This document shows positions 423-35,114 of a stretch of DNA of 64,000 nucleotides, one piece after another (within the stretch, counting starts at the first letter, position 1; every line of letters begins with the position of its first letter). The position numbers were made by a program, and so were the translations under genes. Origin of the DNA: an uncultured Gammaproteobacteria bacterium (GTDB lineage: Bacteria > Patescibacteriota > Patescibacteriia > Veblenbacterales > UBA10138). Location of the stretch: the NCBI GenBank assembly GCA_964453605.1, contig CAYVOI010000001.1, positions 241,627-305,626 of the forward strand, given 5' to 3'. Under the pieces are notes generated by a model. It worked only from the letters and a program-made list of their open reading frames with translations, was not told where the DNA came from and searched no databases.

Positions 423-436
423 AGTGTTGAAGCCAG

Positions 437-619: not shown

Positions 620-696
620 AAAACTTTTGACTTACTGGTGTCTTTATTCTACACTTGAATCAATGAGAAGGCAACTTTTGACAGGGTGCCTTATAA

Positions 697-1341: not shown

Positions 1342-1430
1342 GCAATTCTGACTCGGATTGAGTCAGTACGCTTCCATAGTCATAGGAATAGGCTTGAGAA
1401 AAGCCTGTTTTATTTTGGCTTTGAAAGTTT

Positions 1431-1682: not shown

Positions 1683-1876
1683 TTTCTGACGCTTCACTAC
1701 AAGAGTTTAAGGAGATTTGGAAAGAAGAGATTGGTACTGAAATCTCCGATGAACAAGCAATGGAAGAAGCTACGCAGCTTTTGACGCTCTTTGATGCGAT
1801 TTACCGACCCATCAAGAAGCAATGGCTTAATGACGATGACTATGGAATCCACAAGCGACAATCTCAAGCGGTATAA
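1679..1876 (+). CDS. Hypothetical protein
   Basis: 65-aa acidic ORF; its start overlaps the previous stop (ATGA). Confidence 0.3.
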   Translation: MISDASLQEFKEIWKEEIGTEISDEQAMEEATQLLTLFDAIYRPIKKQWLNDDDYGIHKRQSQAV

Positions 1877-2741: not shown

Positions 2742-2787
2742 ATACTATGAAAATCCAATCAAACACAATTATGCACCTATACCCCCT

Positions 2788-2814
2788 TGTCAGGGTTTTA
2801 CAGGGTGCTATAAT
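2788..2814 (+). promoter_or_regulatory. Near-consensus sigma70-like promoter (TTGTCA-N15-TATAAT)
   Basis: TTGTCA at 2788-2793 and TATAAT at 2809-2814. An 8-bp inverted repeat GTCGTCCC..GGGACGAC follows at about 2955-2990. Confidence 0.3.
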
Positions 2815-2990
2815 TAAATTGCGTCCTACAAGTTTGAATATAAGCACAGGGTATTTGCCTTTTTTGGCTCCAGGTGAGCAAAGAGGGGCGACTATCCTCC
2901 GCATCTGGGGTGCCTTGTGCATTTCAGACTTGTGGGACGCAGGCTCTGGTCGTCCCTCTTTGTCGTTAGTGGGACGACGGGCATACATCT

Positions 2991-3449
2991 ATGACCCGCG
3001 ACCCCAACTCAAAAGAAGACACTCAAGTAGTGTTCTTCAAAAACAATCCTATCACTCCAAAGAAGAGCCAGTTCCTCCAAAGGATCGGATGGTTCTGGTA
3101 TTTGATTTCGGTTGTTGTTTTACTTCGACTCCTTCAAGTCACGGAGAACTTTTGGCTCACTCTTGCCGCCAGCATAGCGGTGGTGTTTGCGTTTCGATGG
3201 CGAAAAATCGTAGAGGAGATAGACGAGGACATAAAACGTCACGGAACCAGAAACGCACTGACCACGGTTATCAACATACTTTTCATAAAAATTGTTATTT
3301 ACGCAATCGGTCTCTCCTTCCTTTTCACGCTTGCTATGCCACTTGCCTGCAACATTCAAGACTCAATGGGTATCAAGTTCTTCTCGAATAGATTTTGCGA
3401 GAACAGCTTTACTAACCTTAAATATCAACTTTATGAAAACAGATATTAA
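2991..3449 (+). CDS. Hypothetical membrane protein
   Basis: 152-aa ORF with hydrophobic segments; overlaps the recombinase start by a few codons. Confidence 0.3.
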   Translation: MTRDPNSKEDTQVVFFKNNPITPKKSQFLQRIGWFWYLISVVVLLRLLQVTENFWLTLAASIAVVFAFRWRKIVEEIDEDIKRHGTRNALTTVINILFIKIVIYAIGLSFLFTLAMPLACNIQDSMGIKFFSNRFCENSFTNLKYQLYENRY

Positions 3450-5121
3450 AAACAACAAAATCAATTACATCTCCTACACCCGCAAAAGTACAGAGGGCGA
3501 GGATAGACAAACACTCTCGCTCGAAGACCAGAAGCGAGAGCTTGATGAGCTAATTAGCAAAGAGGGTCTGAAGGTCTCTGAAAGTTTTACTGGGAAAGTG
3601 AAAGGTGAAAGCCAGTCCGCACACAAGAGAGGGCGACCGATTTTCAATCACATAATGCAACAGATTGAGAGAGGAAAAGCGAACGGTCTGATTGTGTACC
3701 ACCCAAACCGTATTGCCCGTAATGCTTTCGATGGCGGTCTTGTCATCACGTTGATGGACGAAGGTAAGTTGCTCGAAATTAAAACTCCCACCAAAACATA
3801 CGTGAACAACCCAGACGACAAGTTTTGGTTACAGTTGGAGTTCGGTATGGCAAAGAAGTCATCTGATGATAACGGTGTCGCAGTGACCAGAGGCATTAAG
3901 ACAAAATTGATGGCTGGATGGTATCCTTCACGCGCTCCACTTGGTTACCTCAACACAAAGAATTACGAAGAGAAGGGTAAGAACTTCATTCTCAAAGATA
4001 CAGAGCGCTACGATTCGGTTCGTCGAATGTGGGACTTGATGCTTACGGGAAACTATACTCCTCCGCAGATTGTTCAAATTGCTAACAACGAGTGGAAGTT
4101 CAAAACACGTCCTACCAAACGTCACCCAGGACTCAAGCCACTTTCGCGCAGCAACATCTACAAAATCTTTACCAATCCGTTCTACTACGGTTACTTTGAA
4201 TACGGCAAGGAAGGTTCAAAGCAGTTATACAAAGGCAGTCACGAGCCTATGATTACAGAAAAGGAGTACGACATCGTACAGAAGTTACTCGGACGACTGG
4301 GCAGACCACGCGCCCAAAAACATCGCTTTGCTTTCACAGGATTGATGAGATGCGGTAACTGCGGCGCAATGATTACCGCCGAGGAAAAGGTAAAACATCA
4401 GAAGAATGGCAACATCCATCACTACGTGTATTATCGCTGCACAAAACAGAAGGATGAAAAATGCCCAGAGAAGGCAATCGAGTTGAAAGAATTGAGTTCG
4501 CAGATTGATGAAGCTATTGGAAAGTTCACTATATCCGAGCGCTTTAAGAATTGGGCAATCAAAGACTTGCACCAGATACGCCAAACTGAAGCCCAAACAC
4601 ACGAAGCTGCTCTCAAGAGCACTGAACGCGACCACTTGCGCATTACGCAGCAGTTACACAATCTTTTGCTCAAGCATTCTTCACCAGAGAATAGCGAAGG
4701 ACAGTTGATGTCGGATGCAGAATATCAGGATGTGCGCACGAGCTTGCTAAAGCAGAAATCTGCGCTTGAGTCACGAATCACTACTCAAAACAAGGAAATT
4801 GACGAGTGGGTTGCATTAAGCGAACGCACCTTCAATTTTGCCCGCTACGCACGAACTTGGTTTGCCCAGGGCGATATGAACACCAAGAGAGCGATATTCG
4901 CCTGCATAGGTTCGCACCTCATAGTCAAAGACCGAAAAATAGCAGTTACCCTTCGTCCAGTGTTCCAAACAATCTTTGAAGCATTGCCAAAAACACAACC
5001 TGCAATTTCCGAGATTAGAACCTCTCTTGAACTTGCACTTTCAGCTTCAAATAACGAAAAAGACGCCCTTTCGGGGCAGTCTATTTCTACTTGGCGGAGA
5101 GGATGGGATTCGAACCCATGA
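3433..5121 (+). CDS. Large serine recombinase (resolvase/integrase family)
   Basis: MKTDIKNNKINYISYTRKSTEGEDRQTLSLEDQKRELDEL... shows an N-terminal serine-recombinase catalytic domain (Y-x-R-x-S-T, IVYHPNRIARN). A recombinase domain follows, then Cys clusters (CGNCGAM...YYRC) and a coiled-coil C-terminus. Its 3' end overlaps the 3' end of tRNA-Ser(GCT). Confidence 0.85.
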   Translation: MKTDIKNNKINYISYTRKSTEGEDRQTLSLEDQKRELDELISKEGLKVSESFTGKVKGESQSAHKRGRPIFNHIMQQIERGKANGLIVYHPNRIARNAFDGGLVITLMDEGKLLEIKTPTKTYVNNPDDKFWLQLEFGMAKKSSDDNGVAVTRGIKTKLMAGWYPSRAPLGYLNTKNYEEKGKNFILKDTERYDSVRRMWDLMLTGNYTPPQIVQIANNEWKFKTRPTKRHPGLKPLSRSNIYKIFTNPFYYGYFEYGKEGSKQLYKGSHEPMITEKEYDIVQKLLGRLGRPRAQKHRFAFTGLMRCGNCGAMITAEEKVKHQKNGNIHHYVYYRCTKQKDEKCPEKAIELKELSSQIDEAIGKFTISERFKNWAIKDLHQIRQTEAQTHEAALKSTERDHLRITQQLHNLLLKHSSPENSEGQLMSDAEYQDVRTSLLKQKSALESRITTQNKEIDEWVALSERTFNFARYARTWFAQGDMNTKRAIFACIGSHLIVKDRKIAVTLRPVFQTIFEALPKTQPAISEIRTSLELALSASNNEKDALSGQSISTWRRGWDSNP

Positions 5122-5183
5122 GGCGCTGTTTAGGCGCCACGGTTTAGCAAACCGTTGCCTTAAGCCACTCGGCCACCTCTCCC
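5092..5183 (-). tRNA. tRNA-Ser (anticodon GCT)
   Basis: Minus-strand sequence GGAGAGGTGGCCGAGTGGCTTAAGGCAACGGTTTGCTAAACCGTGGCGCCTAAACAGCGCCTCATGGGTTCGAATCCCATCCTCTCCGCCA. Perfect 7-bp acceptor stem, long variable arm, GTTCGAATC T-loop, encoded CCA. Confidence 0.85.
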
Positions 5184-5189
5184 TATGCT

Positions 5190-5582
5190 TTAAAGATTTT
5201 CTGACAGAAATTTTTTCAGAGCTCCCAGATCTTTTTTCTCTGGGTCGTAATAGTACGATGTGATACCAAGTAATTGAGCACTTTTTACCGCATTTGGGTT
5301 ATGTTCAAAGTAGATGACTTCGTCTTTGTTTAAATCATACCGCTGTAACAATATTTCAAAGTATTTAGGGTCAGTTTTTTCCGGGTCGTGTTTTAAGGTG
5401 AACACCTCGTAGGGCATTTTATCCAGGCCGAATTTCTTGAATTCTTCATCATTTGCACCTGTCAAAATTATTTTTTTGTTCGGAAGAGTTTCGAGTAAAC
5501 TATGCATTGCTTCAAATATTTCAAAACCTTCATTTACCCTAACTACGAATCCGTCAATGGCATCAACTAAAATAGTTTTCAT
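5190..5582 (-). CDS. Short HAD-like hydrolase-domain protein
   Basis: 130 aa; MKTILVDAIDGFVV resembles HAD motif I. AT-rich, wedged between two tRNA-Ser genes. Confidence 0.4.
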   Translation of the reverse strand: MKTILVDAIDGFVVRVNEGFEIFEAMHSLLETLPNKKIILTGANDEEFKKFGLDKMPYEVFTLKHDPEKTDPKYFEILLQRYDLNKDEVIYFEHNPNAVKSAQLLGITSYYYDPEKKDLGALKKFLSENL

Positions 5583-5608
5583 ATAGTTACCTTATAGGCG
5601 GGGGCTAG

Positions 5609-5700
5609 TGGCGGAGGGCACAGGATTCGAACCTGTGTGAGGCTCTCGCCCCAACTGGTTTTCAAGACCAGCGCCTTAAGCCACTCAGCGACCTCTCCAC
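5609..5700 (-). tRNA. tRNA-Ser-like (anticodon TGA) with a mismatched acceptor stem; possible pseudo-tRNA
   Basis: Minus strand GGAGAGGTCGCTGAGTGGCTTAAGGCGCTGGTCTTGAAAACCAGTTGGGGCGAGAGCCTCACACAGGTTCGAATCCTGTGCCCTCCGCCA. The D-arm is nearly identical to tRNA-Ser(GCT), but the acceptor 5' GGAGAGG versus 3' GCCCTCC gives two mismatches. Confidence 0.55.
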
Positions 5701-5701
5701 G

Positions 5702-6016
5702 TTAATTCAATTTACTGTACAGCTTTTTAAATTTGTCTTTTTTATAGCATACCAGGAACCTGTCTTTGTACCTGAGCCCCTGCGCCGTAGCGCCGAGGCA
5801 GAACCCTAGCACTATGGGGTTGTAGATATGACTCAGTACAAGTGTAACACCGAGTGCTAGTGCCCATATCCAGTGGTGCAGGTGAATGTAGTATGCGCCG
5901 AAGCTTAGGCGTAGCGATTGGTGTATGTTGTCTCCCGCGACTTTGCCAGCCGTGAGGCTGAACAACAGGTAGGTAGCAAGCGCGGCGAGCGCAATAGGTA
6001 GGGCAGAGTGCAGCAT
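5702..6016 (-). CDS. Small hydrophobic membrane protein
   Basis: 104 aa with 3 predicted TM-like hydrophobic stretches. Alternative ORF 5742..6059 is arginine-rich and less plausible. Confidence 0.4.
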   Translation of the reverse strand: MLHSALPIALAALATYLLFSLTAGKVAGDNIHQSLRLSFGAYYIHLHHWIWALALGVTLVLSHIYNPIVLGFCLGATAQGLRYKDRFLVCYKKDKFKKLYSKLN

Positions 6017-6396: not shown

Positions 6397-6585
6397 ATGG
6401 AACAGTCAGCAACATCGACATCCGATAAAGACTGTACCTGTCCAAAGAACTGCGATTGCCAAAATCCGCCGCCGTTTCACTGGGATGGGCAGGATGGTAT
6501 TTATCACATCAGTAATATGTGTCCTATACATAACGAAAACCCCCTCGCGAGTGAGGATTGTCCTGTACATAACAATAACCTCTAA
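6397..6585 (+). CDS. Cysteine/histidine-rich small protein, metallothionein-like
   Basis: 62 aa MEQSATSTSDKDCTCPKNCDCQNPPPFHWDGQDGIYHISNMCPIHNENPLASEDCPVHNNNL. Contains a CxCxxxCxC motif. SD AAAAGGAG lies 7 nt upstream of the ATG. Confidence 0.5.
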   Translation: MEQSATSTSDKDCTCPKNCDCQNPPPFHWDGQDGIYHISNMCPIHNENPLASEDCPVHNNNL

Positions 6586-10921: not shown

Positions 10922-11557
10922 CTAGAAGCTCACCTTCACTGGCTGCCGCTCAGCGTCACTGTCCACCCCAAAGAACTCACGCTTCTGAAAGCCGAACGAG
11001 TTGCCGATGATGTTGGAGGGGAACGTTTCCAGCGCCGTGTTGAGGTCCCTGACCATACCATTGTAGAATCGGCGGGCGGCTTGGATTTTGTTCTCCGTGT
11101 CGGTAAGGTCGTCCTGGAGTTTGCCAAAGTTAGCTGAAGCCTTAAGGTCGGGGTAGGCCTCGGCCACAGCGAAGAGGCTCTTCAGCGCACCCGAGAGCAT
11201 GTTCTCAGCTTGAGCCTTATCGTTCATGCTTTGCGCACCCATGGCGCGAGTTCGAGCTTCGGTTATGTCGTTAAACACTTTGCTCTCGTGCGTGGCGTAC
11301 CCTTTTACCGTTTCCACCAAGTTTGGTATCAGGTCGTAGCGGCGCTTGAGCTGCACGTCGATGTCGCTCCAACCTTCGGCCGAGCGGTTTTTGAGCGAGA
11401 CCAAACGGTTGTAGGTAGCAATGGCCCAAATGATAACCAGAACTACAATGGCGATAACAATAGTGGTTGGTGACATAAGTTTACGGTAAAGGTTTAGTGA
11501 CGCTTTTGGTGTTCCAGCGTCAAGAACCAACTTTAGCATTTCTAGGTGAAAAATCAA
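10922..11557 (-). CDS. lemA: LemA family protein
   Basis: 211 aa, N-terminal TM segment, LemA-like coiled region. Forms the canonical lemA-htpX pair. Confidence 0.8.
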   Translation of the reverse strand: MIFHLEMLKLVLDAGTPKASLNLYRKLMSPTTIVIAIVVLVIIWAIATYNRLVSLKNRSAEGWSDIDVQLKRRYDLIPNLVETVKGYATHESKVFNDITEARTRAMGAQSMNDKAQAENMLSGALKSLFAVAEAYPDLKASANFGKLQDDLTDTENKIQAARRFYNGMVRDLNTALETFPSNIIGNSFGFQKREFFGVDSDAERQPVKVSF

Positions 11558-11641
11558 GCAGGTTTTGTTCGTTGTATGTAGTGGTGGCGGTTTATTTTAG
11601 CTTGTTTTAGCTGAAATTTAAGGCCTATAAGCGGCTATCCC

Positions 11642-11670
11642 TTGACAAATTACTTAGGCTGCGCTATAGT
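11642..11670 (+). promoter_or_regulatory. Near-consensus sigma70-like promoter (TTGACA-N17-TATAGT)
   Basis: TTGACA 11642-11647 and TATAGT 11665-11670. It faces a roughly 600-nt ORF-poor, hairpin-rich region. Confidence 0.4.
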
Positions 11671-12014
11671 AATCAGTTACTGCAAAACTGCGCAGTAGCA
11701 CCAGGAGCAGCCGAAAATCGGCTGACCAGATGGAAAACCCTTACGGAAAACAAACAAGGAGAGTGCCCTAATGGCCTCGTACCCAACTGGTTTCATCTAG
11801 TTTAACAACCCATCGTCGTTCTTCCCGTCGATCATACTAGTCGAACAGTCAAACAACCAACGCCGGAACGCGATGAAAAAATTTCCCAACGGGTTTACGT
11901 AGCGTATGCGCTACATAGGGGGACATCGACAACTTGTCCCCCACGCGCCTAAGTTCATCTGAGTCTCATGTAAGAAGGTGACTTTAGGGGTGTTCATTAC
12001 CAATGGTTGCTCCG

Positions 12015-12266: not shown

Positions 12267-12446
12267 ATGGAAACAACAAAAATTGTCGTTACGCGACGCA
12301 GTGCTGATTACCACGCGTGCATCAAAGGTCACCCGGAAATTTGGGGTTGTGGGGCATCAATTGCCGAGGCAGTTGGCAATTTGGTTCAAACGCACAGAAC
12401 CGAGTTCAATCTCGAATTTGAGGCTGACATGCCCGATCCCGTGTGA
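12267..12446 (+). CDS. HicB-like (UPF0150) small antitoxin-fold protein
   Basis: 59 aa METTKIVVTRRSADYHACIKGHPEIWGCGASIAEAVGNLVQTH matches the H-x-C-x-x-x-P-x-x-G-x-G-x-S-x-x-EA pattern of the HicB N-terminal domain. Strong SD GGAGGGTG. Confidence 0.45.
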   Translation: METTKIVVTRRSADYHACIKGHPEIWGCGASIAEAVGNLVQTHRTEFNLEFEADMPDPV

Positions 12447-12529: not shown

Positions 12530-13634
12530 ATGCAAGAAGCTGAGCTTGTTCGTAACCTTCGCGCGCTGAAGACCAGAGTCGAGGATGCGCGGAACTGGCT
12601 TTGACCCAGAAAGGGTAAGGGCCAGGTTGGCCGCGCTCGAGGCTGAGATGTCAGCCCCTGAGTTCTGGGCTGATCAGAACCGAGCTAGAGCCGTAACCGC
12701 TGAGCACGACGGCGCTAAAACTGAGCTTGAAGCCTGGGAGAAGTTGCAGCGGGAAGTTGGTGATGCTCTAGAGCTTGCGAGTGCTGACCAAGCTGACCAA
12801 TCGGTTTCTCTCCGTGATGATTTAGAAAAAGTGTACGGCGCTCTACTCAAGCGAGTAGAGGCTTTTGAGTTTAAAAAGTTGCTCGGGCAAAAGTACGACG
12901 AGGCCAATGTGCTACTCGCTGTACACGCTGGCGCTGGCGGCACTGACGCGCAAGACTGGGCTGAGATGCTCCGGCGCATGTACCTCCGGTACGCTGACCA
13001 AATGGACTGGCACGCTGAAGTGGTGGACGAGTCGCGAGGTGGTGAGGCGGGCATCAAGAGCTCTCTCCTCAAAATTACTGGTCGTTATGCTTATGGATAT
13101 TTAAAATGCGAAGCCGGTGTGCACCGCCTGGTGCGCATTTCCCCGTTCGACGCTGAGAAAATGCGCCACACCTCATTCGCGCTCGTGGAGGTGCTGCCTG
13201 AGCTGCCAGAGGTGGGCGAGGTGGAGCTGGACCTTAAAGATTTGCGTATTGATACGTTCATGTCCTCAGGGCACGGCGGGCAAAGCGTAAACACCACGTA
13301 CTCAGCGGTACGCATTGTCCACATTCCAACTGGCATCACGGTCACCTGCCAGAATGAACGTTCACAAATGCAGAACAAAGAAACCGCCATGAAGTACCTG
13401 CGGGCCAAGCTGTGGCAGCTCGAGTGGGGTAAGCAGCAAGCTGAAAAGCAAAAACTCAGGGGAGAGTTCAAGAGTGCGGAGTGGGGGAACCAGGCTCGGT
13501 CGTACGTTTTGCACCCTTACAAGTTGGTGAAAGACCACCGCACCGAGTTTGAAACCACCAACCCTGATGTTGTACTCAACGGTGAGCTTACGCCGTTTAT
13601 AGAAGCCAGGCTTAAGCAGCTGGCGACCGCCTAA
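12530..13634 (+). CDS. prfB: Peptide chain release factor 2, with programmed +1 ribosomal frameshift
   Basis: Frame 0 runs from ATG 12530 (MQEAELVRNLRALKTRVEDARNWL) into CTT TGA C at 12599-12605. The +1 frame from 12603 continues through SPF and GGQ motifs to 13634. CDS is join(12530..12601,12603..13634). Confidence 0.9.
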
Positions 13635-13643: not shown

Positions 13644-15077
13644 ATGGGTGAAGTTGTTATTCCACGAGTACCTTCTCTTCACCCAGCACAAACGTTCCGC
13701 TGGGTTACCTTAGGGTTGGTAGCCGGTTTTGCCGCTAGTGTGGTTGTACGTTTGCCTTGGCAGATGTGTGTGCTGGCAGTGGCCTTGGTAGTTACATTTA
13801 TTTTGCTGCAGCGACAGCTGAGAGCGGTGGGGTTGCTGACGCTTGGATGTTTGTTGGCGTTGCTCAGGACAAGTTTTCTGACCTCCCCACCCCCACCGTC
13901 GTTTTTCGTTGGACCGCAGCAGTTTGAAGCTAAAATTGTAGAGGAGCCTAAAGTTTCTGAGCGTTCACGGCGCTACGTAGTGCAGCCTGAAGCGTCAGCC
14001 GTGGGGCAGGTGGTGCTCGTTACTTTGCCGTACCCAGGCTATCGCTATGGCGACCGCCTCAGAGTGAGTTGTAAAAACGTGGAGGTGGTTGACTTTGCTG
14101 GCTACACTAATCAAGGCGTGTGGCGGCAGTGTACGTTTCCAGATTTGGAGCTAGTAGCTAGGTCAGGGTGGAGTTTGCGGGGTTCGCTACTCGAGCTTAA
14201 GTACGGAGTTGGTGCTTACATGCAGAACTTGCTCAATGAACCGTACGCGGCGCTGGCTGCGGGCATGCTCTGGGGCGACTACAGTAAACTACCTCAGTCT
14301 ACCATCGACGCCTTTCGCCGGACTGGCACCTCACACCTCCTGGCCGTGTCTGGGTACAACGTCATGGTGCTGTCGGAAATTCTGTTCACCGTGCTTATTG
14401 CGGTAGGCCTTTGGCGCAAGCAGGCGAGCTGGGTAGTGGTTGGTGTGCTGATTTTGTTTACCTTGTTCACTGGCGCTGAGGCGTCAGTAGTTAGGGCAGC
14501 TATTATGGCGTCGCTTCTCATTGCCGCGCGTCTCTTGGCCCGCAAACCTGACCGAGTGAATGTGCTTCTTGGCACCGCCGCCGCCATGTTGCTCTTTGGC
14601 CCGCGGCTGGTGCTTGACCTAGGCTTTCAGCTCAGCTTTGGCGCCATGGCCGGGTTGATGTTTGTGGCGCCGGTGTTTGAGCAGCAGTTCAGTTTACTGC
14701 CAGAAGTTTGGGGCCTCAGGCAGTCGGTAGCCCAGACCATGGCCGCGACAGTTGTAACACTGCCTATTATTCTCGTGCGGCTAGACCAACTCAGCCTGGT
14801 GAGTCCGTTTGCTAACGTGCTGCTCGGGCCGGTGGTTGTTCTGGTGTTTGCCCTTGGCTTACCCCTTTTGGTGCTCGGGATGGTGCAGTGGCTGGCAGCG
14901 CCGTTAGCTTGGGCGCTCACTGCCGTGCTCTACTACGTTATTACAGTGGTAGAGTCGCTCGCCAGTTTGCCCTGGGCCTGGACGCAGGGTAGTGCTGTGG
15001 CTTGGATAGCGGTAGTAATGCTGTATGCTGTAGGCGCCTGGTGGCTCTGGCCGCGACCTGAGGGTGCCAAGAAGTAG
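13644..15077 (+). CDS. comEC: ComEC/Rec2 family competence membrane protein
   Basis: 477 aa, polytopic membrane protein with the SHLLAVSGYNV competence-domain motif. No beta-lactamase domain. Confidence 0.8.
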   Translation: MGEVVIPRVPSLHPAQTFRWVTLGLVAGFAASVVVRLPWQMCVLAVALVVTFILLQRQLRAVGLLTLGCLLALLRTSFLTSPPPPSFFVGPQQFEAKIVEEPKVSERSRRYVVQPEASAVGQVVLVTLPYPGYRYGDRLRVSCKNVEVVDFAGYTNQGVWRQCTFPDLELVARSGWSLRGSLLELKYGVGAYMQNLLNEPYAALAAGMLWGDYSKLPQSTIDAFRRTGTSHLLAVSGYNVMVLSEILFTVLIAVGLWRKQASWVVVGVLILFTLFTGAEASVVRAAIMASLLIAARLLARKPDRVNVLLGTAAAMLLFGPRLVLDLGFQLSFGAMAGLMFVAPVFEQQFSLLPEVWGLRQSVAQTMAATVVTLPIILVRLDQLSLVSPFANVLLGPVVVLVFALGLPLLVLGMVQWLAAPLAWALTAVLYYVITVVESLASLPWAWTQGSAVAWIAVVMLYAVGAWWLWPRPEGAKK

Positions 15078-16256: not shown

Positions 16257-16709
16257 ATGGCGACAGATGAGAAGAAGCGCGTAGGGGCAGGCTTTGGTGT
16301 TATCCTAGAACGCGACGGCAAAATTCTTTTAGGTCTGCGGCACCCCGACCCCGACAAGGCTGATTCAGCTTTCCGTAGCGCCGGCGAGTGGTGGTTGCCC
16401 GGCGGGAAGTTGGAATGGGGAGAAAGTTTTGAGGCCGGTGCGGCCCGCGAGGTCAAAGAAGAAACTAGCATTACCATCGAAAACCCTAAGGTTATCTCGG
16501 TTCACAATTGTAAGAACGAGCACGCCCACTTTATGACCGTTGGGCTCGTGACTCATACGTGGCAGGGAGAAGCCCGGGTAATGGAACCAGATGAAATAGT
16601 GCAGTGGGAATGGTTTGGCCTCAACAGCTTGCCTCAGCCCAGGTATTTTCCTAGTTTTGAGGTCATAGAAAATTACGTACAAGGTAAATTCTATATATCG
16701 AGGCCATAA
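16257..16709 (+). CDS. NUDIX hydrolase
   Basis: Nudix box GGKLEWGESFEAGAAREVKEETSI. Confidence 0.8.
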   Translation: MATDEKKRVGAGFGVILERDGKILLGLRHPDPDKADSAFRSAGEWWLPGGKLEWGESFEAGAAREVKEETSITIENPKVISVHNCKNEHAHFMTVGLVTHTWQGEARVMEPDEIVQWEWFGLNSLPQPRYFPSFEVIENYVQGKFYISRP

Positions 16710-16823
16710 GTAGCCCTCGTTAACCCACAGCACCTATCAGCTACAAGCGTGCCGAGAAGACATGGTGTTCTAGTGTGAAACGTGCTACACTATAGCTACC
16801 TTAGCAGTTAACGTTTATGTACT

Positions 16824-17174
16824 ATGGGTAAAGAGTATAGCCGAGAAATGTATGAGCAGGCCGAGGGCAAAGTTCATAGCCTGGAAGAGAGGGGCCAGCA
16901 GCTAGCTGCGGAAATTCAGCGGGATATAGAGGAACATGGCGTACGAGGCTACTTGAAGCATGCCATGAACTTAAACATTCTGCGAACTAATCTTGAAGTT
17001 GGGCAAATCTACCAAGCGGAGGCCAAACGTGCTCAAGTTCTTGAAGCGGGGGAGGCTGAAGCGGTAGAGCTTAATAATGAGCACGCCCGGCTCCAGCAGA
17101 AGGTAGCTGAGGCTCTAGGCCAGTTGGCACAGTTTGAAAAAGATAAGCTGGGCATGCACGTCGAAGAGACATGA
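16824..17174 (+). CDS. Hypothetical coiled-coil protein
   Basis: 116 aa, Glu/Ala/Gln-rich heptad-like sequence. Followed by a strong terminator. Confidence 0.4.
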   Translation: MGKEYSREMYEQAEGKVHSLEERGQQLAAEIQRDIEEHGVRGYLKHAMNLNILRTNLEVGQIYQAEAKRAQVLEAGEAEAVELNNEHARLQQKVAEALGQLAQFEKDKLGMHVEET

Positions 17175-17197
17175 TGGTTTAAACTATGGTGTGGTTC

Positions 17198-17228
17198 AAC
17201 GTGCCCCTGCGGGGGCACGTTTTGGTTT
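17198..17228 (+). terminator. Rho-independent terminator
   Basis: AACGTGCCCC-tgcg-GGGGCACGTT followed by TTGGTTT. Confidence 0.55.
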
Positions 17229-17605
17229 ACCGTTTGACAGCCCGAGTAGTTGTGCTACTATACCCCAATACCTTATAGGTTTATGGCTAACTTCAGCCAC
17301 AAGTCGGTCCGCACTACCCAGGTTGTTTGCTTTAGCCTGGTGCTTTGCCTGTGCCTGGAGCGGCTTGGAACTATGAGGTAGATTTCGAAAGCAAAACCCT
17401 CACGCAAATTCCTGAGCCGCCCCTTACCGGAGCGGCTCACGTGTTGTAACAGCGCTTTTTAACAACTAAATCATCAACTCAATCAGGCTACTGTTAGAGA
17501 AAGGAGGAGCACGAAGGGCACTACATGCCCAAACGAGCCAACCCAGCTATTCACTACATCACCACCAACGCTGAGTGGCAGAGCCACTCAAGAAAGGAGC
17601 AGTAC

Positions 17606-17881
17606 ATGCCACACCCGAACGGAGAGCTTGTGACCCAAGCGATGCCAGAGCGCACGTTAGCAGCTCCGCGCCAGCTATCAGCCCCCGGCTACACCAGTCC
17701 CCATGAAATTGGTCGCCACTGTGTTGTGAATATTGGCGGCACCGACCAAGTAGTGTGCTTCTACATGCACTGTGCTGTAACCGGAACGGTTGATAACCTG
17801 AAAAACTTTCTTTTGCAGCCCTGCCAGCGCCGTCGCGGCGACGAAGAAACGCGTGACAGCTGGGGAAACGTTCGACCTTGA
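17606..17881 (+). CDS. Hypothetical small protein
   Basis: 91 aa; SD AAAGGAG 6 nt upstream of ATG 17606. Confidence 0.4.
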   Translation: MPHPNGELVTQAMPERTLAAPRQLSAPGYTSPHEIGRHCVVNIGGTDQVVCFYMHCAVTGTVDNLKNFLLQPCQRRRGDEETRDSWGNVRP

Positions 17882-17892
17882 AAGGAGCCACC

Positions 17893-18084
17893 ATGAAAGC
17901 GGATAAGCACTGTGCCAGTTGTAACTTTCCTATCGACGACGCGGTTGAAACCTGTGCCTACTGCGGCCACCCGCAAGGCACCCGCCCACTCGACGTGGAG
18001 TGTCCTGACATTCCACACGAACCCAACCCGCCACCGCGGCCGCCCCACGAGAATGAGTTGCCCCGCTACGTTGGCTGCATCTGA
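17893..18084 (+). CDS. Small zinc-ribbon protein
   Basis: 63 aa MKADKHCASCNFPIDDAVETCAYCGHPQGT... (CxxC...CxxC) with a Pro-rich tail. SD AAAGGAG 5 nt upstream. Confidence 0.45.
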   Translation: MKADKHCASCNFPIDDAVETCAYCGHPQGTRPLDVECPDIPHEPNPPPRPPHENELPRYVGCI

Positions 18085-18132
18085 CCCGCTTCACCCCCCT
18101 ACTGTTCAACCCGAACCTAAAAGGAGTAAACA

Positions 18133-18414
18133 ATGACCACGTGCATAAGAAAGATATGCCGCACCTGCAAGCGTTCACCAACCAATCTTGAGACCAACTA
18201 CTGCCAACACTGCGAGCGGTACACCGGTTTTGTACCCGATAGGCGCGCTGAAGAGCTCTACGAAGTTTGCACCCAGTGCGCCCACCCGCGTTTTTCACGA
18301 GGTAACGGCCAGTGTACAGCAGCCCACCCGCTCGCCACCGAGTTTAGGTGGATGAACGTCTTAGAGCACCGCTCACTCCGCCAGCAGCTCGCTGAACCCG
18401 AAGTCACCGAATAG
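18133..18414 (+). CDS. Small zinc-ribbon protein, two CxxC pairs
   Basis: 93 aa with CRTC...CQHC and CTQC motifs. SD AAAAGGAG upstream. Confidence 0.45.
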   Translation: MTTCIRKICRTCKRSPTNLETNYCQHCERYTGFVPDRRAEELYEVCTQCAHPRFSRGNGQCTAAHPLATEFRWMNVLEHRSLRQQLAEPEVTE

Positions 18415-18469
18415 CCCAATCACCCACCACCAACCCGCGGGGTCTAGCTCCGCAGAAAGGAACTAGTAC

Positions 18470-18919
18470 ATGGAAAGCACCACCGCCCGGACGGCTGAGC
18501 TGTACCAGCTCTGGAAAGCATCATGCAATGCACTTCGGCAGTTGCGGGCCGACAAGCAGGTGCTCGCCAAGAAGCAGTGCGTGCTCAGCCAAGAGCTCAT
18601 TGCCCTTCGCTCGCGTAGCAAAGCAGAGCAGGAACTGCTCAGGGTTCGCACAGCCGAGCTCAGGCAGAGCATCGATAACCATACGGCCAGCTACCAGCAG
18701 CACATTCGTACCCACCGCCGGCTCTGCCGAACCATCGAAGCCACGCTCGGCTCGGGCACCATTGGCACCTGGGTTAGCACCCTACTCGTTCTCACCGCCC
18801 CGCAGCCTGAACCAGAGCCGTCGCCGGCTGAACAGCAAATGAAGCCAATTGTACTTTCGAAAAGTCCGGATTCTAACTACGGCCGCAGCGGCGGACTGTA
18901 CTGGGACGGCTACGCTTAA
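18470..18919 (+). CDS. Hypothetical coiled-coil protein with one hydrophobic segment
   Basis: 149 aa; SD GAAAGGAA upstream. Terminator GGTTTCCAC-AAC-GTGGAAGCC plus T-run at about 18944-18985. Confidence 0.45.
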   Translation: MESTTARTAELYQLWKASCNALRQLRADKQVLAKKQCVLSQELIALRSRSKAEQELLRVRTAELRQSIDNHTASYQQHIRTHRRLCRTIEATLGSGTIGTWVSTLLVLTAPQPEPEPSPAEQQMKPIVLSKSPDSNYGRSGGLYWDGYA

Positions 18920-19203
18920 CACCAACCCATTATCACTCATTTTTTTAAAAAGGTTTCCACAACGTGGAAGCCTTTTATTTTCTTGGTTCTTTTAAACTCC
19001 ACGGTTCATCAAACATTCATGCTTGTACTGAAGTGTTCGTTGGCTCAAGGTGAGGGCAAACAAAAAACGAATCTTTATTCAAAGAAAGGAGGAAAAACCA
19101 GCGAAAAAAGGGACAAAGTTTTGTCCCTTTTTATTTTTTCGCTAAGTTCCAGCTTGTGTATAAAAAAATGGCTAACGTTAGCCACCAGATTCATTTTTCG
19201 CGA

Positions 19204-19475
19204 TTGACAAAACACTTCACTTGCGCTACACTGGTAGTAGCTCTTCCACATGCTTGATACCAATTGAGCTCTATACATATATGCCATGGGGTTCGCATAG
19301 CTAACGCCTCCGGGCGACAGCTGAGAACGCCACGCGGCAGTGTGGTAGGGGAGTAACGGGACGTTTGATGGGAGTGAGGAACACGCTCTCATCCGCACCC
19401 AGCTTCCCTAAGCCCAGCCCAACTGGAGTCTAGGAACTCCAATTCGTATCAAGCCCTGGTAGGGCTTTTAATTTT
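19204..19475 (+). ncRNA. Candidate small ncRNA unit: consensus promoter to intrinsic terminator, no ORF
   Basis: TTGACA 19204-19209, N17, TACACT 19227-19232. Terminator AGCCCT-GGT-AGGGCT plus TTTTAATTTT at 19452-19475. About 235 nt between them with no ORF longer than 10 codons. Confidence 0.3.
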
Positions 19476-19525
19476 GCCCAAATATTGCTACAGTGCCAGA
19501 GCTCAATACCCGTATTGAGCACTCT

Positions 19526-19653
19526 GGTCGGGGTGTGGTGTACCCCGAAGAATCCGCCAGTCGGCGGATTTACGGGGCAGGCATGCACCCGAGGGGGCGA
19601 GAGCGAGCTGGCGTAGCTCTCGCGGGCAGTTACATTGAAAAAGTATCCATGGT
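19526..19653 (+). pseudogene. Degenerate 5' fragment of tRNA-Pro with hairpin insertions
   Basis: Starts with the same 19 nt as the tRNA-Pro 5' end (GGTCGGGGTGTGGTGTACC). Retains ATGCACCC but has a nested hairpin inserted in the D-loop and no T-arm or acceptor 3' half. Confidence 0.4.
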
Positions 19654-19728
19654 CGGGGTGTGGTGTACCGGTAACATGCACCCTTGGGGTGGGTGTGACA
19701 GCGGGTTCGACTCCCGCCACCCCGACCA
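19654..19728 (+). tRNA. tRNA-Pro (anticodon GGG)
   Basis: CGGGGTGTGGTGTACCGGTAACATGCACCCTTGGGGTGGGTGTGACAGCGGGTTCGACTCCCGCCACCCCGACCA. 7-bp acceptor, CACCC/GGGTG anticodon stem with loop TTGGGGT, TTCGACT T-loop, encoded CCA. Confidence 0.8.
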
Positions 19729-19762
19729 TGGATATTTGGAAGACAGCGGGCATTGCCCAGGA

Positions 19763-19800
19763 GGGTGTGACGGTGGGTTCGACTCCCACTACCCCGACTA
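19763..19800 (+). repeat. Partial direct repeat of the tRNA-Pro 3' half (att-like remnant)
   Basis: GGGTGTGACGGTGGGTTCGACTCCCACTACCCCGACTA versus the tRNA GGGTGTGACAGCGGGTTCGACTCCCGCCACCCCGACCA. A third acceptor-end-like copy, CCTCCACCCCGACCA, sits at 19942-19956. Confidence 0.5.
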
Positions 19801-20025
19801 AGCACATTCGTTTAGGAGACAGAGGGGCGTAAAGCCCTCGCGTAAAGCGACGTGGTCGCCACGCGACTTTACGTCGGGGGCCACGCCCTCTAGGAGGTTC
19901 GATTTACCCCGTAGGGATACGAAGTATCTCCTGCGGGGCTCCCTCCACCCCGACCAGAGATCATAGATATGATGAAACCCGACTCGCATCGCAAGCCGGG
20001 TTTCGTTGTTTGAAGTTAGTGCTTT

Positions 20026-20478
20026 TTAGCTCGGTACCAGAGCCAGGCCTTGGGAGTGACAGATGCTGAAGGCGGGGTGTTTCTCGCCAATTTCACGTAA
20101 GACCTCTTCGGTCTGTTTTCGCCAACGCGAGTCGCAGGGTTTAGCGTTGGTAACTTTAAAGCATTCAAGCGCTTCGGTCTTAGTTTTGAAAAGTGCGATG
20201 ATGGCAAATGTACCATCTCCCCAGTAGCGAGTGTTTACCTTTTCAATGTTGCGTTCGATGCCAGCAAGTGGGCTGGTCATCGCGTATTTTTCTGGGAAGA
20301 ATACAATAAGCTGTTTGCAAATCGCTACCATTGTGCCACCCTGCAGCTGGTACCCCACAGGAGGAGAATTGCTGTCTCCGTGAACGGCGATTTTCTTGAC
20401 CGAAGGGTACCCATTCTTGCCCTGAGCTTTGGCATGGTAAACAGAAGTTTTTGTTACCGCAAAGAATTCTTTCAACAT
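20026..20478 (-). CDS. Hypothetical protein
   Basis: 150-aa ORF with reasonable codon usage; no recognisable motif. Confidence 0.4.
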   Translation of the reverse strand: MLKEFFAVTKTSVYHAKAQGKNGYPSVKKIAVHGDSNSPPVGYQLQGGTMVAICKQLIVFFPEKYAMTSPLAGIERNIEKVNTRYWGDGTFAIIALFKTKTEALECFKVTNAKPCDSRWRKQTEEVLREIGEKHPAFSICHSQGLALVPS

Positions 20479-20856: not shown

Positions 20857-21009
20857 TATGCCCGGTATGACAACTTTAGCTACGCTCACCATTCTGGCCC
20901 GATTTACCGACAAAGCATTAGTTTTCTATGTCAAGGTTATTGTTTAGTGCTAACCCAAACCACTTGGCTCGCGTAAGCGTGCCAGGCTAAAGTTGCTCTA
21001 CCGGGTATG
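20857..21009. mobile_element. TATG-flanked miniature inverted-repeat element, copy G
   Basis: TATGCCCGGTATGACAACTTTAGCTACGCTC...GCTAAAGTTGCTCTACCGGGTATG. Same terminal architecture as the six copies in the r-protein operon. The terminal ATG is the M50 peptidase start. Confidence 0.6.
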
Positions 21010-22639: not shown

Positions 22640-22870
22640 ATGCCAGACGCGCCGGCTGAGACGAAGGTTTGTCCGAAGTGTGGGGGAGTGATGGAACAAG
22701 GTAAGATTAAACCAGTGAGTCAAGTTCCAGGTTTACTCGTTGGTTCAGCGACCGTTGGCAGTCAAAGGTGGTTTAATGGTTCAGAACCAGCAGATGTAAA
22801 GCATGGTCAAAGGATCCAAGCTTTTGCCTGTACCAAGTGCGGGTATTTGGAATCTTACTTAGAAAAGTAA
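22640..22870 (+). CDS. Small zinc-ribbon protein inserted between rpsG and fusA
   Basis: 76 aa with CPKCGG ... CTKCGY. Confidence 0.45.
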
Positions 22871-27097: not shown

Positions 27098-27311
27098 TAG
27101 AGTTACAACGTTCTTGAAATCCTTCTAAAACTTCCCCTACGTGTAGCCTTAGCACTGCGACGGTGGCCCTAAAGACCACACCTACAGCTGCCAAAGCCCA
27201 CACCTACGGAGTTCCTCTCACTTCTCACCACCTTACCCCGACATTCTTGTATGACAACCGTTTACCGGAGTTTTGGAGTTGTGGGTAGGTAAACGGTTTT
27301 TGTTTAGAGCT

Positions 27312-27457
27312 TATGCCCAGCATGACAACTTCGCTAGTGCTCGATTCAACCACCATGTATAACAACCTTATGTTTCGTATAAAGTCTTTATTCACTAACC
27401 ATTCGCTTACTTCTCCTCGCACTGAGGTGGTTGAGCGAAGTTGCTCTGCTGGGTATG
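27312..27457. mobile_element. TATG-flanked miniature inverted-repeat element, copy A
   Basis: TATGCCCAGCATGACAACTTCGCTAGTGCTCG...GAGCGAAGTTGCTCTGCTGGGTATG. Terminal inverted repeat CCCAGCA/TGCTGGG, flanking direct TATG. Its 3' ATG is the rplC start. A terminator lies just upstream at about 27258-27308. Confidence 0.6.
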
Positions 27458-29047: not shown

Positions 29048-29051
29048 GCCG

Positions 29052-29197
29052 TATGCCCAGCATGACAACTTCGCTAGCGCTCCTACCAACCACTATGTGC
29101 CAGAACCTTATGCTTCGTACACAGACCTTATTCACTAACCACCAACTTACTCCCACTCGCGCTTGGGTGGTTGAGCGAAGTTGCTCTGCCGGGTATG
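29052..29197. mobile_element. TATG-flanked miniature inverted-repeat element, copy B
   Basis: 146 nt, TATGCCCAGCATGACAACTTCGCTAGCGCTCC...GAGCGAAGTTGCTCTGCCGGGTATG. Identical to copy E over its full length. Its 3' ATG is the rplB start. Confidence 0.65.
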
Positions 29198-32114: not shown

Positions 32115-32261
32115 TATGCCCAGCATGACAACTTTGCTAGAGCTCGCGGCCACGGCTAACACTACCACCCCTATGTACTCTACTGCTCATACAATTACCA
32201 TTAACGACTCGCAGCCAAGCTCGCTCCATTGGGGCCGAGCAAAGTTGCCAGCTCAGGTATG
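32115..32261. mobile_element. TATG-flanked miniature inverted-repeat element, copy C (more diverged)
   Basis: TATGCCCAGCATGACAACTTTGCTAGAGCTCGCGG...GAGCAAAGTTGCCAGCTCAGGTATG. Its 3' ATG is the rpsQ start. Confidence 0.55.
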
Positions 32262-35109: not shown

Positions 35110-35114
35110 CCACC

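Follow-up and report, generated by a model that had tools for sequence, protein, structure and literature searches.

The cluster described here lies in a 64-kb window, the whole stretch of DNA analyzed, from a member of the Patescibacteria (CPR) with a tiny genome, and comprises five small genes, A to E, at positions 16824-18919. Promoter, terminator, and attenuator calls in the window are predictions from sequence. Gene A (16824..17174, + strand) encodes an acidic, helical or coiled-coil-like protein of 116 amino acids and forms a transcription unit apart, upstream of the operon that holds the other four genes. It is followed by a terminator-like hairpin (17198..17221, +) with a 10-bp stem that includes 7 GC pairs, and then by TTGGTTT. 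The operon opens with a sigma-70-type promoter-like site (17234..17261, +; TTGACA-16-TACTAT with TG) and a leader, and then carries genes B (17606..17881), C (17893..18084), D (18133..18414), and E (18470..18919), all on the + strand. The operon is closed by a terminator-like hairpin (18948..18976, +) with a 13-bp stem and a T-rich tail, and equivalent hairpins are also found 3' of the gene E homologues in the metagenomic contigs L092, L093, and L094.

Farther downstream, the hairpin scan returned a second terminator-like hairpin (19105..19132, +), and a promoter-like site was found at 19204..19232 in the hairpin and promoter scan of the window. The stretch 19083..19132 (+) combines this second hairpin with an orphan SD, AGAAAGGAGGAAAAA, without an open reading frame, and probably represents what is left of a further lost cistron. 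Beyond it lies a tRNA-Pro(GGG) gene (19654-19728), with partial copies at 19525-19544, 19760-19808, and 19939-19961. The original prediction had the cluster flanked by strong terminators and promoters. Such sites are indeed present at both flanks, but promoter-like and terminator-like sites are about as frequent in shuffled sequence, and it is their placement alone that is informative.

The encoded proteins and their relatives

The cluster was compared with related loci, among them L002, L003, and L004, in which the interval from an ADK-like gene to tRNA-Pro(GGG) forms the corresponding island, and L011, which also has such an island, and with the contigs L092, L093, and L094, which at 1.2-2.8 kb are too short to be placed in their genomes. 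The gene starts of the cluster are identical in an independent gene call on the identical contig, and the product sizes of B to E fall between 63 and 149 amino acids, as first described. With a codon model trained on core genes, B, D, and E score best in the annotated frame and A and C are ambiguous; for gene A the model cannot choose between the annotated frame and an antisense frame. No homologue of gene A was found in 90 related loci, and no family match above a curated cut-off in the family-library scans.

Gene B encodes 91 amino acids with 4 Cys and 4 His. Its N-terminus, MPHPNGE, resembles the MPHCPHDE of L092:368, and the pattern H-x-V-[VL]...FC...HC-x-V is common to B, L092:368, and L094:1093, in an alignment that is otherwise poor. 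The sequence just upstream of B (17498..17605, +) contains an orphan SD, AGAAAGGAGG, placed 17 nt before an ATG at 17525, together with an in-frame remnant, fused to B, of a gene here called Zn1. At the equivalent position, L094 (875-1051) and L092 (147-326) encode Zn1 as a zinc-ribbon protein of 58-59 amino acids. The window can be aligned to Zn1 only over the SD and the 3' third of the gene, and its SD region is duplicated, with the copies 93 nt apart; this stretch is likely the relic of a lost first cistron. A start for B at 17525, which would give a protein of homologue-like length (118 amino acids), was rejected because 17525-17605 aligns with the 3' end of the lost upstream gene; the MPHP... 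N-terminus and the SD map to 17606.

Gene C encodes 63 amino acids: a zinc ribbon (C7xxC10...C21xxC24) at the N-terminus, then a Pro-rich linker, and ELPR-x-VGCI as a conserved motif at the C-terminus. Its homologues are L092:721, L094:1446, and L003:8443, and C10, C21, and C24 are invariant among the four sequences. It scores 18.7 bits against Pfam PF13240 Zn_Ribbon_1, below the gathering cut-off of 25, and 18.2 bits against PF12773 DZR, for which the cut-off is 27.3.

Gene D encodes 93 amino acids with two predicted metal sites. An exhaustive HMMER search of 1.84 billion representatives returned three real relatives (E 1e-17 to 1e-11, 42-46% identity), and L003:8893 is a further, full-length relative at 27% identity. 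In these five sequences C9, C24, C27, C46, C49, C61, H65, and H79 are invariant. Against DZR_2 gene D reaches only 11.7 bits (cut-off 27), and in a profile search of the PDB the family profile matched the eL43 zinc ribbon weakly (E 0.02). Two further candidates, P0007 (an LRR-like protein of 1133 amino acids) and P0008 (a repeat protein), were set aside as compositional matches upon reading of their sequences.

Gene E encodes a basic protein of 149 amino acids and, among the genes of the cluster, shows the widest coding margin. Its N-terminal ~95 residues are helical and coiled-coil-like, its PDB profile matches are only weak ones to coiled-coil chains, and its C-terminal motif, KPIVLSxxPD(P/S)NYGRSG, is conserved in the homologues L093:645, L094:2272, and L092:1351. 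The original prediction of two proteins with paired CxxC knuckles is thus borne out by C and D, whose knuckles are kept in their homologues. It had also given one product a coiled coil and a transmembrane segment; for gene E the former is consistent with the N-terminus, but the best 19-residue Kyte-Doolittle mean is 1.19, against the usual 1.6, and the stretch concerned (96-110) is unconserved in the homologues.

Genes A to E, along with gene F, an SD-led gene beyond the tRNA gene, and other SD-led ORFs, gave nothing above the cut-offs of Pfam, PHROG, PADLOC, and NCBIfam, and phmmer searches of the PDB with D and B gave no match. A word-indexed search of 5.8 billion proteins with B, D, and E returned the query alone; the orphan status of D is partly an artefact of the word filter, since the exhaustive search later found its family. 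Structure prediction, proposed earlier as a check, was carried out, but the single-sequence AF2 models reached a pLDDT of only 47.7 for D and 42.5 for B, too low for a fold search.

The products are under selection, because the metal ligands (6 Cys and 2 His in D, 3 of the 4 zinc-ribbon Cys in C) and the gene E motif are invariant or nearly so in the homologues recovered. B to E define four new small-protein families, two of them predicted to bind zinc, alongside a previously unannotated leader RNA. The archaeal CPxCG micro-proteins are small zinc-finger proteins comparable to the Zn_Ribbon_1 and DZR type. The products here resemble such micro-proteins in their length (60-95 amino acids), in their conserved paired CxxC knuckles, and in the weak matches of C to Zn_Ribbon_1 and DZR and of the D profile to eL43. 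In contrast, all scores are under curated cut-offs, the operon includes a helical partner protein, and the second Cys/His set of D (C9, C61, H65, H79) and its conserved helical tail are unmatched by described families.

Synteny had been named as a further check. The gene order (Zn1)-B-C-D-E, along with the SDs, recurs on L092, L093, and L094, and an orthologue of D occupies the same interval between the ADK-like gene and tRNA-Pro(GGG) in L003, a related MAG; D is the only gene with a detectable orthologue inside a long syntenic contig. The intervals of L002, L003, and L004 also contain small ORFs that are preceded by an SD and encode zinc-ribbon and coiled-coil proteins, and the promoter and leader are kept in relatives. 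Synteny of the locus, the promoter and leader, and the neighboring ncRNA extends to genomes in which the ADK-like proteins share only 74-78% identity. The cluster proteins themselves diverge very rapidly, identity in D being 27-46%, and there is turnover of cistrons by gain and loss. A metagenome scan of 80 loci with the ADK-like protein recovered mostly more distant lineages without the island.

Two kinds of start site

Sequence reading and a motif scan place AAAGGAG 6 nt before the ATG of gene B (17606), 5 nt before that of C (17893), and 6 nt before that of D (18133). The four-fold AAAGGAG at 5-7 nt that was originally described holds for these three genes but not for E, where only AAAGGAAC (followed by 'tagtac') precedes the ATG at 18470, a weaker SD that reads AAAGGAA at 8 nt. 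Gene A has no SD and carries T at -1, as core genes do. On both strands of the 64 kb AAAGGAG occurs 10 times, with half of these occurrences inside 17500-19092. The SD-led ORFs outside the operon, at 6397, 12267, 20478(-), and 57882(-), are scattered.

The accompanying observation that SDs are rare among the other genes of the window was confirmed, with almost all of these being SD-less. Pairing with the anti-SD was modeled over 18 nt upstream of 72 start codons, with a canonical anti-SD assumed (the window contains no rRNA, and the 16S rRNA lies outside it). The median over the 72 starts is -0.8 kcal/mol, and random positions pair more strongly (-2.4). Six starts reach -8 kcal/mol or below, 17606, 17893, and 18133 among them. 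SDs are therefore depleted upstream of genes in the 64-kb window, with a few strong exceptions. T at -1 precedes 53 of 64 non-SD genes (83%) in the window but only 1 of the 8 ORFs led by an SD (Fisher p = 1.5e-4). The locus offers a testable example of a genome with two start-site grammars, one SD-independent (UAUG) and one that uses the canonical SD.

A comparable situation has been described in the Bacteroidia, which have SD-blind ribosomes, an SD-led minority of genes, and autoregulation of rpsU/bS21 (PMC7797042, PMC9976891, PMC13000453), and which typically keep the SD at the prfB frameshift site (PMC10798248). As in the Bacteroidia, SDs are depleted here, and very few genes with strong, well-spaced SDs form a separate translational class. 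The lineage is different, however, and the SD-led genes here encode small lineage-specific proteins. The default start context is T at -1 rather than upstream adenines, the canonical anti-SD is an assumption here, and the prfB frameshift site here is without its SD. A motif search found no rpsU/bS21-like ORF in the window; in the Bacteroidia-type system rpsU is an SD-led gene, and the 16S rRNA has a canonical anti-SD that bS21, bS18, and bS6 sequester. The anti-SD is absent from some Parcubacteria (PMC9297842).

The leader and its predicted switch

The conserved promoter and leader of about 190 nt at 17234-17440 are newly recognized here. They are kept in six sequences, including the window, L002, L003, L004, and L094, with nhmmer E-values of 1e-51 to 1e-59 in L002-L004 and 1e-33 in L094. 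Within the leader lies an ORF of 32 codons (17283..17381, +; MANFSHKSVRTTQVVCFSLVLCLCLERLGTMR) that has no SD and T at -1, and whose product is hydrophobic and rich in Ile, Leu, and Val. An aligned ATG, a length of 30-33 codons, and T at -1 are common to all five named sequences, and between the window and L094 a 3-nt indel preserves the frame. The ORF is too short for the codon model to be informative. Ile, Leu, and Val together make up 28-40% of the leader peptides, as they would in any hydrophobic peptide, and there is no tandem run of one regulatory codon.

Downstream, 17357..17440 (+) has the appearance of an attenuator-like switch built from segment 2 (17357-17370, +; GGAGCGGCUUGGAA), segment 3 (17409-17423, +; UUCCUGAGCCGCCCC), and segment 4 (17428-17439, +; CGGAGCGGCUCA), in which 2:3 pairing would form an antiterminator and 3:4 pairing a terminator hairpin. 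The stop codon of the leader ORF lies 9 nt 3' of segment 2 in the window. In per-sequence folds the 3:4 hairpin has an energy of -18 to -23.5 kcal/mol, with outer stems that differ in a compensating way across four genomes, and the 2:3 duplex is predicted at -13 to -20 kcal/mol. Nascent RNA without segment 4 adopts the 2:3 fold in all five sequences, and the full-length leader RNA the 3:4 fold in four of them; in the exception, L094, the antiterminator is still the MFE structure when segment 4 is included. L002, L003, and L004 have a good U-rich tail; that of the window is poor (ACGUGUUGU), and a second small hairpin and T5 come next there (17441-17460). No Rfam family matched the leader.

From its sequence the leader reads as a leader-peptide transcription attenuator, for which the attenuators of amino-acid operons, of the trpL, ilvL, and leuL type, are the classical model. 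Like these, it has an ORF of 30-33 codons in about 190 nt and a strong hairpin immediately 5' of the structural genes. The 5' arm of this hairpin has an alternative partner in an upstream segment, which a ribosome terminating at the leader stop codon would cover. The Ile/Leu/Val-rich peptide recalls ilvL in particular. The differences are that tandem codons for one amino acid are absent here, the U-tract is weak in the window, there is no Rfam match, and the genes controlled encode small proteins rather than biosynthetic enzymes, in a CPR host with little biosynthesis.

The usual targets of T-boxes are genes for aminoacyl-tRNA synthetases, transporters, or biosynthesis. In L002, L003, and L011 the island contains T-box leaders (RF00230) directly before SD-led small genes, at 114, 91, and 88 bits respectively, of which only L002 passes the gathering score of 93. 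In the alignment both GUU (Val) and UUC (Phe) are compatible as specifier codon, and the T-box-led neighboring genes of these relatives are predicted to respond to uncharged tRNA. Unlike these islands, the window has no T-box match at the gathering score, nor one at E <= 5 in 16700-20100, and the relatives' T-boxes directly precede not B-E but another sub-operon, which encodes a coiled-coil protein and a 39-aa basic peptide.

Origin and proposed mode of action

A foreign, phage-like origin had been suggested for the cluster, which would make it a recently acquired phage or mobile cassette, or a prophage remnant at a tRNA-Pro hotspot, that kept the SDs of its donor. The tRNA gene with its partial duplicates does adjoin the cluster, the genes are small orphans, the island varies among relatives and contains an IS30-like transposase in L011, and gene F has a weak IMG/VR match (47% over 34 aa). 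Against this, the tRNA-Pro copies, which had been called a scar array, all lie 3' of the cluster (19525-19961) and do not bracket it, and no integrase ORF is found in 14-22 kb. The k-mer comparison with the core gave a core-like result, the tetranucleotide distance to the window mean being z = -0.4 to +0.5 for 16.5-20 kb, while the true outliers of the window lie at 1-6 kb and 52-54.5 kb (z up to 4.1); codon usage is also core-like, with GC3 of 0.58-0.71 in the cluster against 0.57-0.76 in the core. PHROG gave nothing of note (best E 0.037), tblastn of B, D, and E gave no match in 50,697 phage records, and IMG/VR held no relatives of B or E. Synteny at 74-78% ADK-like identity implies that any acquisition is older than the clade. 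With orthologues in syntenic position and core-like composition, recent acquisition is very improbable and largely refuted. In SD-poor genomes horizontal transfer should not be diagnosed from the presence of SDs, as the SD cluster here is native. The other proposal, a small regulatory or defence module, fares better in its first half, the attenuator-like leader and the relatives' T-boxes making a regulatory role plausible. Defence and conflict modules often use small zinc-ribbon and coiled-coil proteins, and a toxin-antitoxin, abortive-infection, or other such module, with its fast evolution reflecting an arms race, would suit the very rapid divergence, the gene turnover, and the hypervariable island at a fixed site. 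However, none of A-E, F, and the 6397 ORF matched PADLOC-DB v2 at E <= 1, the family scans gave no nuclease, ATPase, kinase, or other effector domain, the 4-6 cistrons are without the architecture of a TA pair, and a T-box and attenuator typify regulons of translation and amino-acid supply instead; defence is left without support and is improbable. The original prediction as a whole is partly supported.

Two further alternatives concern whether the features are what they seem. The ORFs might be chance ORFs in a transcribed non-coding region, for the coding margins amount to no more than 0.04-0.14 (core genes reach 0.14 or more, and A and C are ambiguous) and all were orphans in the word-indexed searches. 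Yet four consecutive, non-overlapping ORFs each have a correctly spaced SD, and orthologues at 27-46% identity retain the order, lengths, SDs, and invariant Cys/His ligands; the probability of this reading is close to negligible, and for C, D, and E it is effectively refuted. The leader, for its part, could be no attenuator: 17262-17460 would then be a stand-alone small RNA and/or encode a 32-aa membrane peptide, type-I-toxin-like or regulatory, with the hairpin as its terminator and B-E expressed by read-through or from an unrecognized promoter. The hydrophobic core of the peptides (ILGLI-like; KD15 2.2), the strong hairpin stem in every genome, the absence of tandem regulatory codons, and the AT-rich spacer of about 60 nt between the hairpin and the first SD would all agree with this. 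On the other hand, segment 4 repeats segment 2 exactly, something for which a plain terminator has no need, the leader stop lies at a constant short distance after segment 2, and there is no second promoter-like site in 17261-17606. Segments 2 and 3 also covary in every genome (AGAGCGG/CCGCUCU, GAAGCGG/CCGCUUC, GGAGCGG/CCGCUCC), a claim that comes from per-sequence folds, the covariation term of RNAalifold on four sequences being zero because MAFFT misaligned the hairpin arms. A stand-alone RNA or peptide is a rather unlikely alternative.

The explanation that fits best, held with slightly more confidence than doubt, is a native, vertically inherited, CPR-clade-specific small-protein operon that is gated by an attenuator according to translation status and translated by means of SDs. 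Transcription would start at the single promoter (17234-17261) and run through the ~190-nt leader and SD-led B, C, D, and E (17606-18919) to the hairpin at 18948-18976. The 32-codon leader ORF would be initiated by the default, SD-independent mode of the genome (T at -1). A ribosome at its stop codon would mask segment 2, allowing the 3:4 terminator to form, whereas with slow or absent leader translation the 2:3 antiterminator would form first and RNA polymerase would read through. The resulting mRNA, with 11, 48, and 55 nt between its cistrons, would be translated one cistron at a time via SD/anti-SD pairing, a route hardly used by the rest of the genome. The operon would thus be on when ordinary translation falters, for instance when charged tRNA is short, which fits the presence of T-box leaders in the corresponding island in three relatives. 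The products may be small zinc-ribbon and helical regulators that bind nucleic acids or proteins and respond to stress; this is the weakest step, with no homology pointing to a specific activity.

A broader version of this proposal is quite speculative and probably too ambitious. According to it, the SD-led small genes (the operon together with 6397, 12267, 20478(-), and 57882(-)) would form a separate translational regulon, expressed only when the default 'UAUG' mode falters. The leader ORF would act as a reporter of the default mode and terminate transcription of the SD genes, and the anti-SD might normally be unavailable, as in the Bacteroidia. The zinc-ribbon products would in turn feed back on the machinery of translation or transcription, and the locus would be a 'nursery' of persistent SD landing pads at which small ORFs are born and lost.

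The CPR/Patescibacteria make up a big share of bacterial diversity, and to our knowledge translation initiation and its regulation are almost unstudied in them. The leader is a predicted attenuator that would wire the UAUG grammar to the SD grammar within a compact, testable locus, and the new families and leader RNA, being conserved in one clade, are amenable to cloning and assays. Should the link to translation status prove false, a 'foreign-looking' SD cluster has still been shown to be native. If it is true, the operon would represent a starvation or stress response in organisms without most of the known ones.

Two classes of translation start

The window carries prfB, comEC, an adenylate-kinase-like (ADK-like) gene, rpsL-rpsG-fusA-tuf and an S10/spc ribosomal operon that lacks uL30. 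Among public genomes, Patescibacteria/CPR MAGs (DeMMO2_23, UBA10001 and others) come closest to it, with ADK-like proteins 74-78% identical to that of the window. Proteins of the window are also present on an 876-kb NCBI contig, and independent gene calls on an identical 11.8-kb Logan contig agree with the gene starts of the original prediction.

Pairing to the anti-Shine-Dalgarno (anti-SD) sequence was modelled on the 18 nt that precede each of 72 start codons. The anti-SD motif is absent from some Parcubacteria (PMC9297842), and a canonical anti-SD is assumed here, as the window contains no 16S rRNA. The median modelled pairing is -0.8 kcal/mol at the starts versus -2.4 at random positions, and SD-like sequence is therefore depleted before genes. 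Pairing of -8 kcal/mol or stronger is found at just 6 of the 72 starts, three of which belong to the small genes B, C and D (17606, 17893 and 18133, + strand). The base at -1 also separates the two classes, being T in 53/64 non-SD genes versus 1/8 SD-led ORFs (p = 1.5e-4), where it is otherwise C or A. Together, the T at -1 (UAUG) and the SD depletion suggest that initiation is by default SD-independent and employs an extended start codon. Both the pairing model and the -1 contrast show the SD cluster in this SD-poor window to be real and far from chance. Four strong SDs had been claimed, and three of these stand: AAAGGAG lies 6, 5 and 6 nt from the ATG of B, C and D, respectively, while E (18470, +) is preceded by the weaker AAAGGAAC alone. 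Gene A (16824, +) has no SD upstream of its start. Of the ten AAAGGAG in the window, both strands counted, five fall inside 17500-19092.

The other SD-led ORFs are all small, and none has a homologue in 90 related loci. They comprise a Cys-rich 62-aa ORF (6397-6585, +), a 59-aa ORF upstream of prfB (12267-12446, +), a 59-aa ORF with a C-terminal CxxC between rpsG and fusA (22691-22870, +), the 150-aa gene F just past the tRNA-Pro repeats (20026-20478, -) and a 70-aa membrane protein with CxC motifs (57670-57882, -). Gene F has a single weak partial match on an IMG/VR contig. The prfB gene harbors a programmed +1 frameshift (region 12530-12605), in which a 24-codon ORF0 terminates with CUU UGA C (12599-12605), and the sequence just upstream (GCGGAACUGG) has no SD-like stimulator of the usual kind.

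Conservation and origin of the small genes

In the related loci L002, L003 and L004, the island that extends from the ADK-like gene and a glycosyltransferase to tRNA-Pro(GGG) is also packed with small ORFs, which encode zinc ribbons or coiled coils and nearly all of which have a strong SD. D is the sole protein for which a full-length orthologue is recognisable in these three islands, at L003:8893-9174, which is likewise 93 aa long and 27% identical to D (pairwise E 2e-6). When 5.8 billion proteins were searched by word index, the queries alone came back; an exhaustive HMMER scan of 1.84 billion cluster representatives gave three real relatives of D (42-46% identity, E 1e-17 to 1e-11). The metagenomic contigs on which these three relatives lie (L092, L093 and L094; 1.2-2.8 kb) share a gene order, complete with SDs, of Zn1 (a zinc-ribbon cistron of 58-59 aa) followed by homologues of B, C, D and E, with an additional zinc protein between the C homologue and D in L094. 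Zn1 has been lost from the window, where its SD (17498-17507) and 3' third (17510-17605) persist, the latter joined in frame to B. At 19083, between two terminators, there is another SD with no ORF behind it.

Alignment of D reveals invariant C9, C24, C27, C46, C49, C61, H65 and H79, which would be enough for two metal sites. In C, residues C10, C21 and C24 are invariant and a C-terminal ELPRxVGCI is common to C and L092, while E retains a C-terminal KPIVLSxxPDPNYGRSG. The transmembrane segment once proposed for E is not credible, since its best 19-residue hydropathy is 1.19 and polar sequence replaces the stretch in homologues. The neighboring prfB and comEC are 67-79% and 37-53% identical, respectively. 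The alignments show that C, D and E are real genes under selection, inherited within the clade and diverging much faster than their neighbors. Single-sequence AF2 models of two cluster proteins were both unusable, and no homology points to a more specific function, but the conserved metal ligands, small size and helical partners suggest nucleic-acid- or protein-binding regulators.

At the more distant locus L068, whose ADK-like protein shares 57% identity, only a short stretch (11465-11852) separates the ADK-like gene from tRNA-Pro(GGG). It is occupied by two small ORFs, one of 70 aa preceded by an SD-like GGGAGG and the other a zinc ribbon of 63 aa that has no evident SD. Because zinc-ribbon genes are present even here, their link to the ADK-like/tRNA-Pro site may be old.

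A foreign, phage-like origin had been considered plausible for the cluster, and is rejected on the evidence. Over 16.5-20 kb, tetranucleotide composition departs no more than usual from the window mean (z -0.4 to +0.5). Core genes have a GC3 of 0.57-0.76, to which the five ORFs (0.52-0.71) come close, and a codon model trained on those genes favors the annotated frame of B, D and E. PHROGs, PADLOC, Pfam and NCBIfam yielded nothing at curated cut-off or convincing E-value for the cluster proteins; B, D and E have no tblastn match in 50,697 phage records, and B and E have no relatives in IMG/VR scans. The partial tRNA-Pro copies are confined to 19525-19961, all downstream of the cluster, which is thus not bracketed by them. 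Orthologues at the syntenic position with core-like composition, named beforehand as the observation that would speak against a foreign origin, are indeed what is seen. Better candidates for acquired DNA are the compositional outliers of the window, the low-GC segments 1-6000, which contains three tRNA-Ser genes, and 52000-54500 (0.37-0.46 versus about 0.54; z up to 4.1). At L011, from a close relative, the corresponding small-gene island has an insertion at 13936-14943 (-), a 335-aa ORF for an IS30-like transposase.

A predicted attenuator in the operon leader

A promoter-like site at 17234-17261 (+) precedes a leader of about 190 nt and then the first SD. The leader has no Rfam match. It is conserved in L094 and L092 and, with nhmmer E of 1e-51 to 1e-59, in L002, L003 and L004. 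Within it lies an ORF of 30-33 codons, with no SD and with T at -1, whose ATG holds one alignment position in each of the five complete copies; the window and L094 differ by a 3-nt, frame-preserving indel. Downstream, segments 3 (17409-17423) and 4 (17428-17439) form a hairpin of -18 to -23.5 kcal/mol, the outer stem of which is different yet compensating in every genome. Segment 2 (17357-17370), at the end of the leader ORF and 9 nt before its stop codon, is an upstream copy of segment 4 and is able to pair with segment 3 instead. Segments 2 and 3 covary (AGAGCGG/CCGCUCU, GAAGCGG/CCGCUUC, GGAGCGG/CCGCUCC). Nascent RNA lacking segment 4 folds 2:3 in 5/5 sequences, and the full RNA folds 3:4 in 4/5.

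This predicted layout is the anatomy of a leader-peptide attenuator, of which the trp and ilv attenuators are the classical type and one of the two closest mechanistic analogues. The U-tract is poor in the window, and no regulatory codon run was found in the leader ORF, the peptide of which is hydrophobic and rich in Ile, Leu and Val. That the element is instead a stand-alone sRNA or a membrane micropeptide with its own terminator is, given the covarying alternative pairing, rather unlikely. For an attenuator, the switching step we infer from the folding models is that, when SD-independent translation is efficient, the ribosome ending the leader ORF would mask segment 2, the terminator would form and the operon would be off. 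If the leader is translated slowly or not at all, the antiterminator would be the first to form and a polycistronic mRNA would be made, on which cistrons separated by 11, 48 and 55 nt would each be started via their own SD.

T-boxes, neighboring elements and the two modes of initiation

T-box leaders are found in three related islands, at L002:11131-11432 (114 bits, where 93 is the gathering score), L003:7250-7569 (91 bits) and L011:13070-13368 (88 bits), the latter two just under that score. They sit directly upstream of other SD-led small genes, for a coiled-coil protein of 82 aa and a basic peptide of 39 aa, rather than of a synthetase or transporter gene. All three share the specifier region GAAGUUCC, with GUU or UUC as the codon. 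The window has no T-box. From these T-boxes, the island appears to have come repeatedly under sensors of tRNA charging or translation in the clade. The earlier suggestion of a small regulatory module is thus retained and, with the leader and the T-boxes of the relatives, sharpened.

Further elements surround the cluster. A structured ncRNA of about 230 nt (19239-19470, +), with a promoter-like site at 19204-19232 and a terminator at 19451-19467, is conserved in L002, L003 and L004 with compensatory changes in 19/52 predicted pairs, and has no Rfam match even at E <= 5. The tRNA-Pro "scars" (19525-19625 and 19760-19961) may not be mere scars, because the upstream 5'-half copy and the next hairpin (19598-19623, GCGAGAGC...GCTCTCGC) are kept in relatives with compensating stems (L002 GTGAAAGC/GCTTTCAC, L004 GCCGATCC/GGATCGGC). 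The 5' copy (19522-19550) and the distal 3' copy (19931-19959) are complementary to each other. A repeat of about 145 nt with imperfect terminal inverted repeats (5' TATGCCCAGCATGACAACTTCGCT ... AGCGAAGTTGCTCTGCCGGGTATG 3') occurs at 20863-21009, 27310-27457, 29050-29197, 32115-32261, 34413-34557, 35113-35260 and 36175-36324, between ribosomal-protein genes (before uL3, uL2, uS17, uL6, uL18 and uL15) and before an M50 peptidase gene. Every copy starts TATG and has the ATG of the gene as its exact end; those at 29195 and 35258 hardly differ from each other. The repeat could be a MITE aimed at start codons or an intercistronic structured RNA with the AUG in a stem.

In Bacteroidia, sequestration of the anti-SD makes ribosomes blind to SDs, and the very few SD-led genes, notably rpsU, make up a special class (PMC7797042, PMC9976891, PMC13000453). 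This SD-blind system is the other of the two closest mechanistic analogues, with the anti-SD of the present genome assumed, there being no 16S in the window. The principles are already known; what appears to be new are the small-protein families and an undescribed leader RNA. The chief interest lies in the two-grammar pattern of translation and in the predicted coupling between the two grammars.
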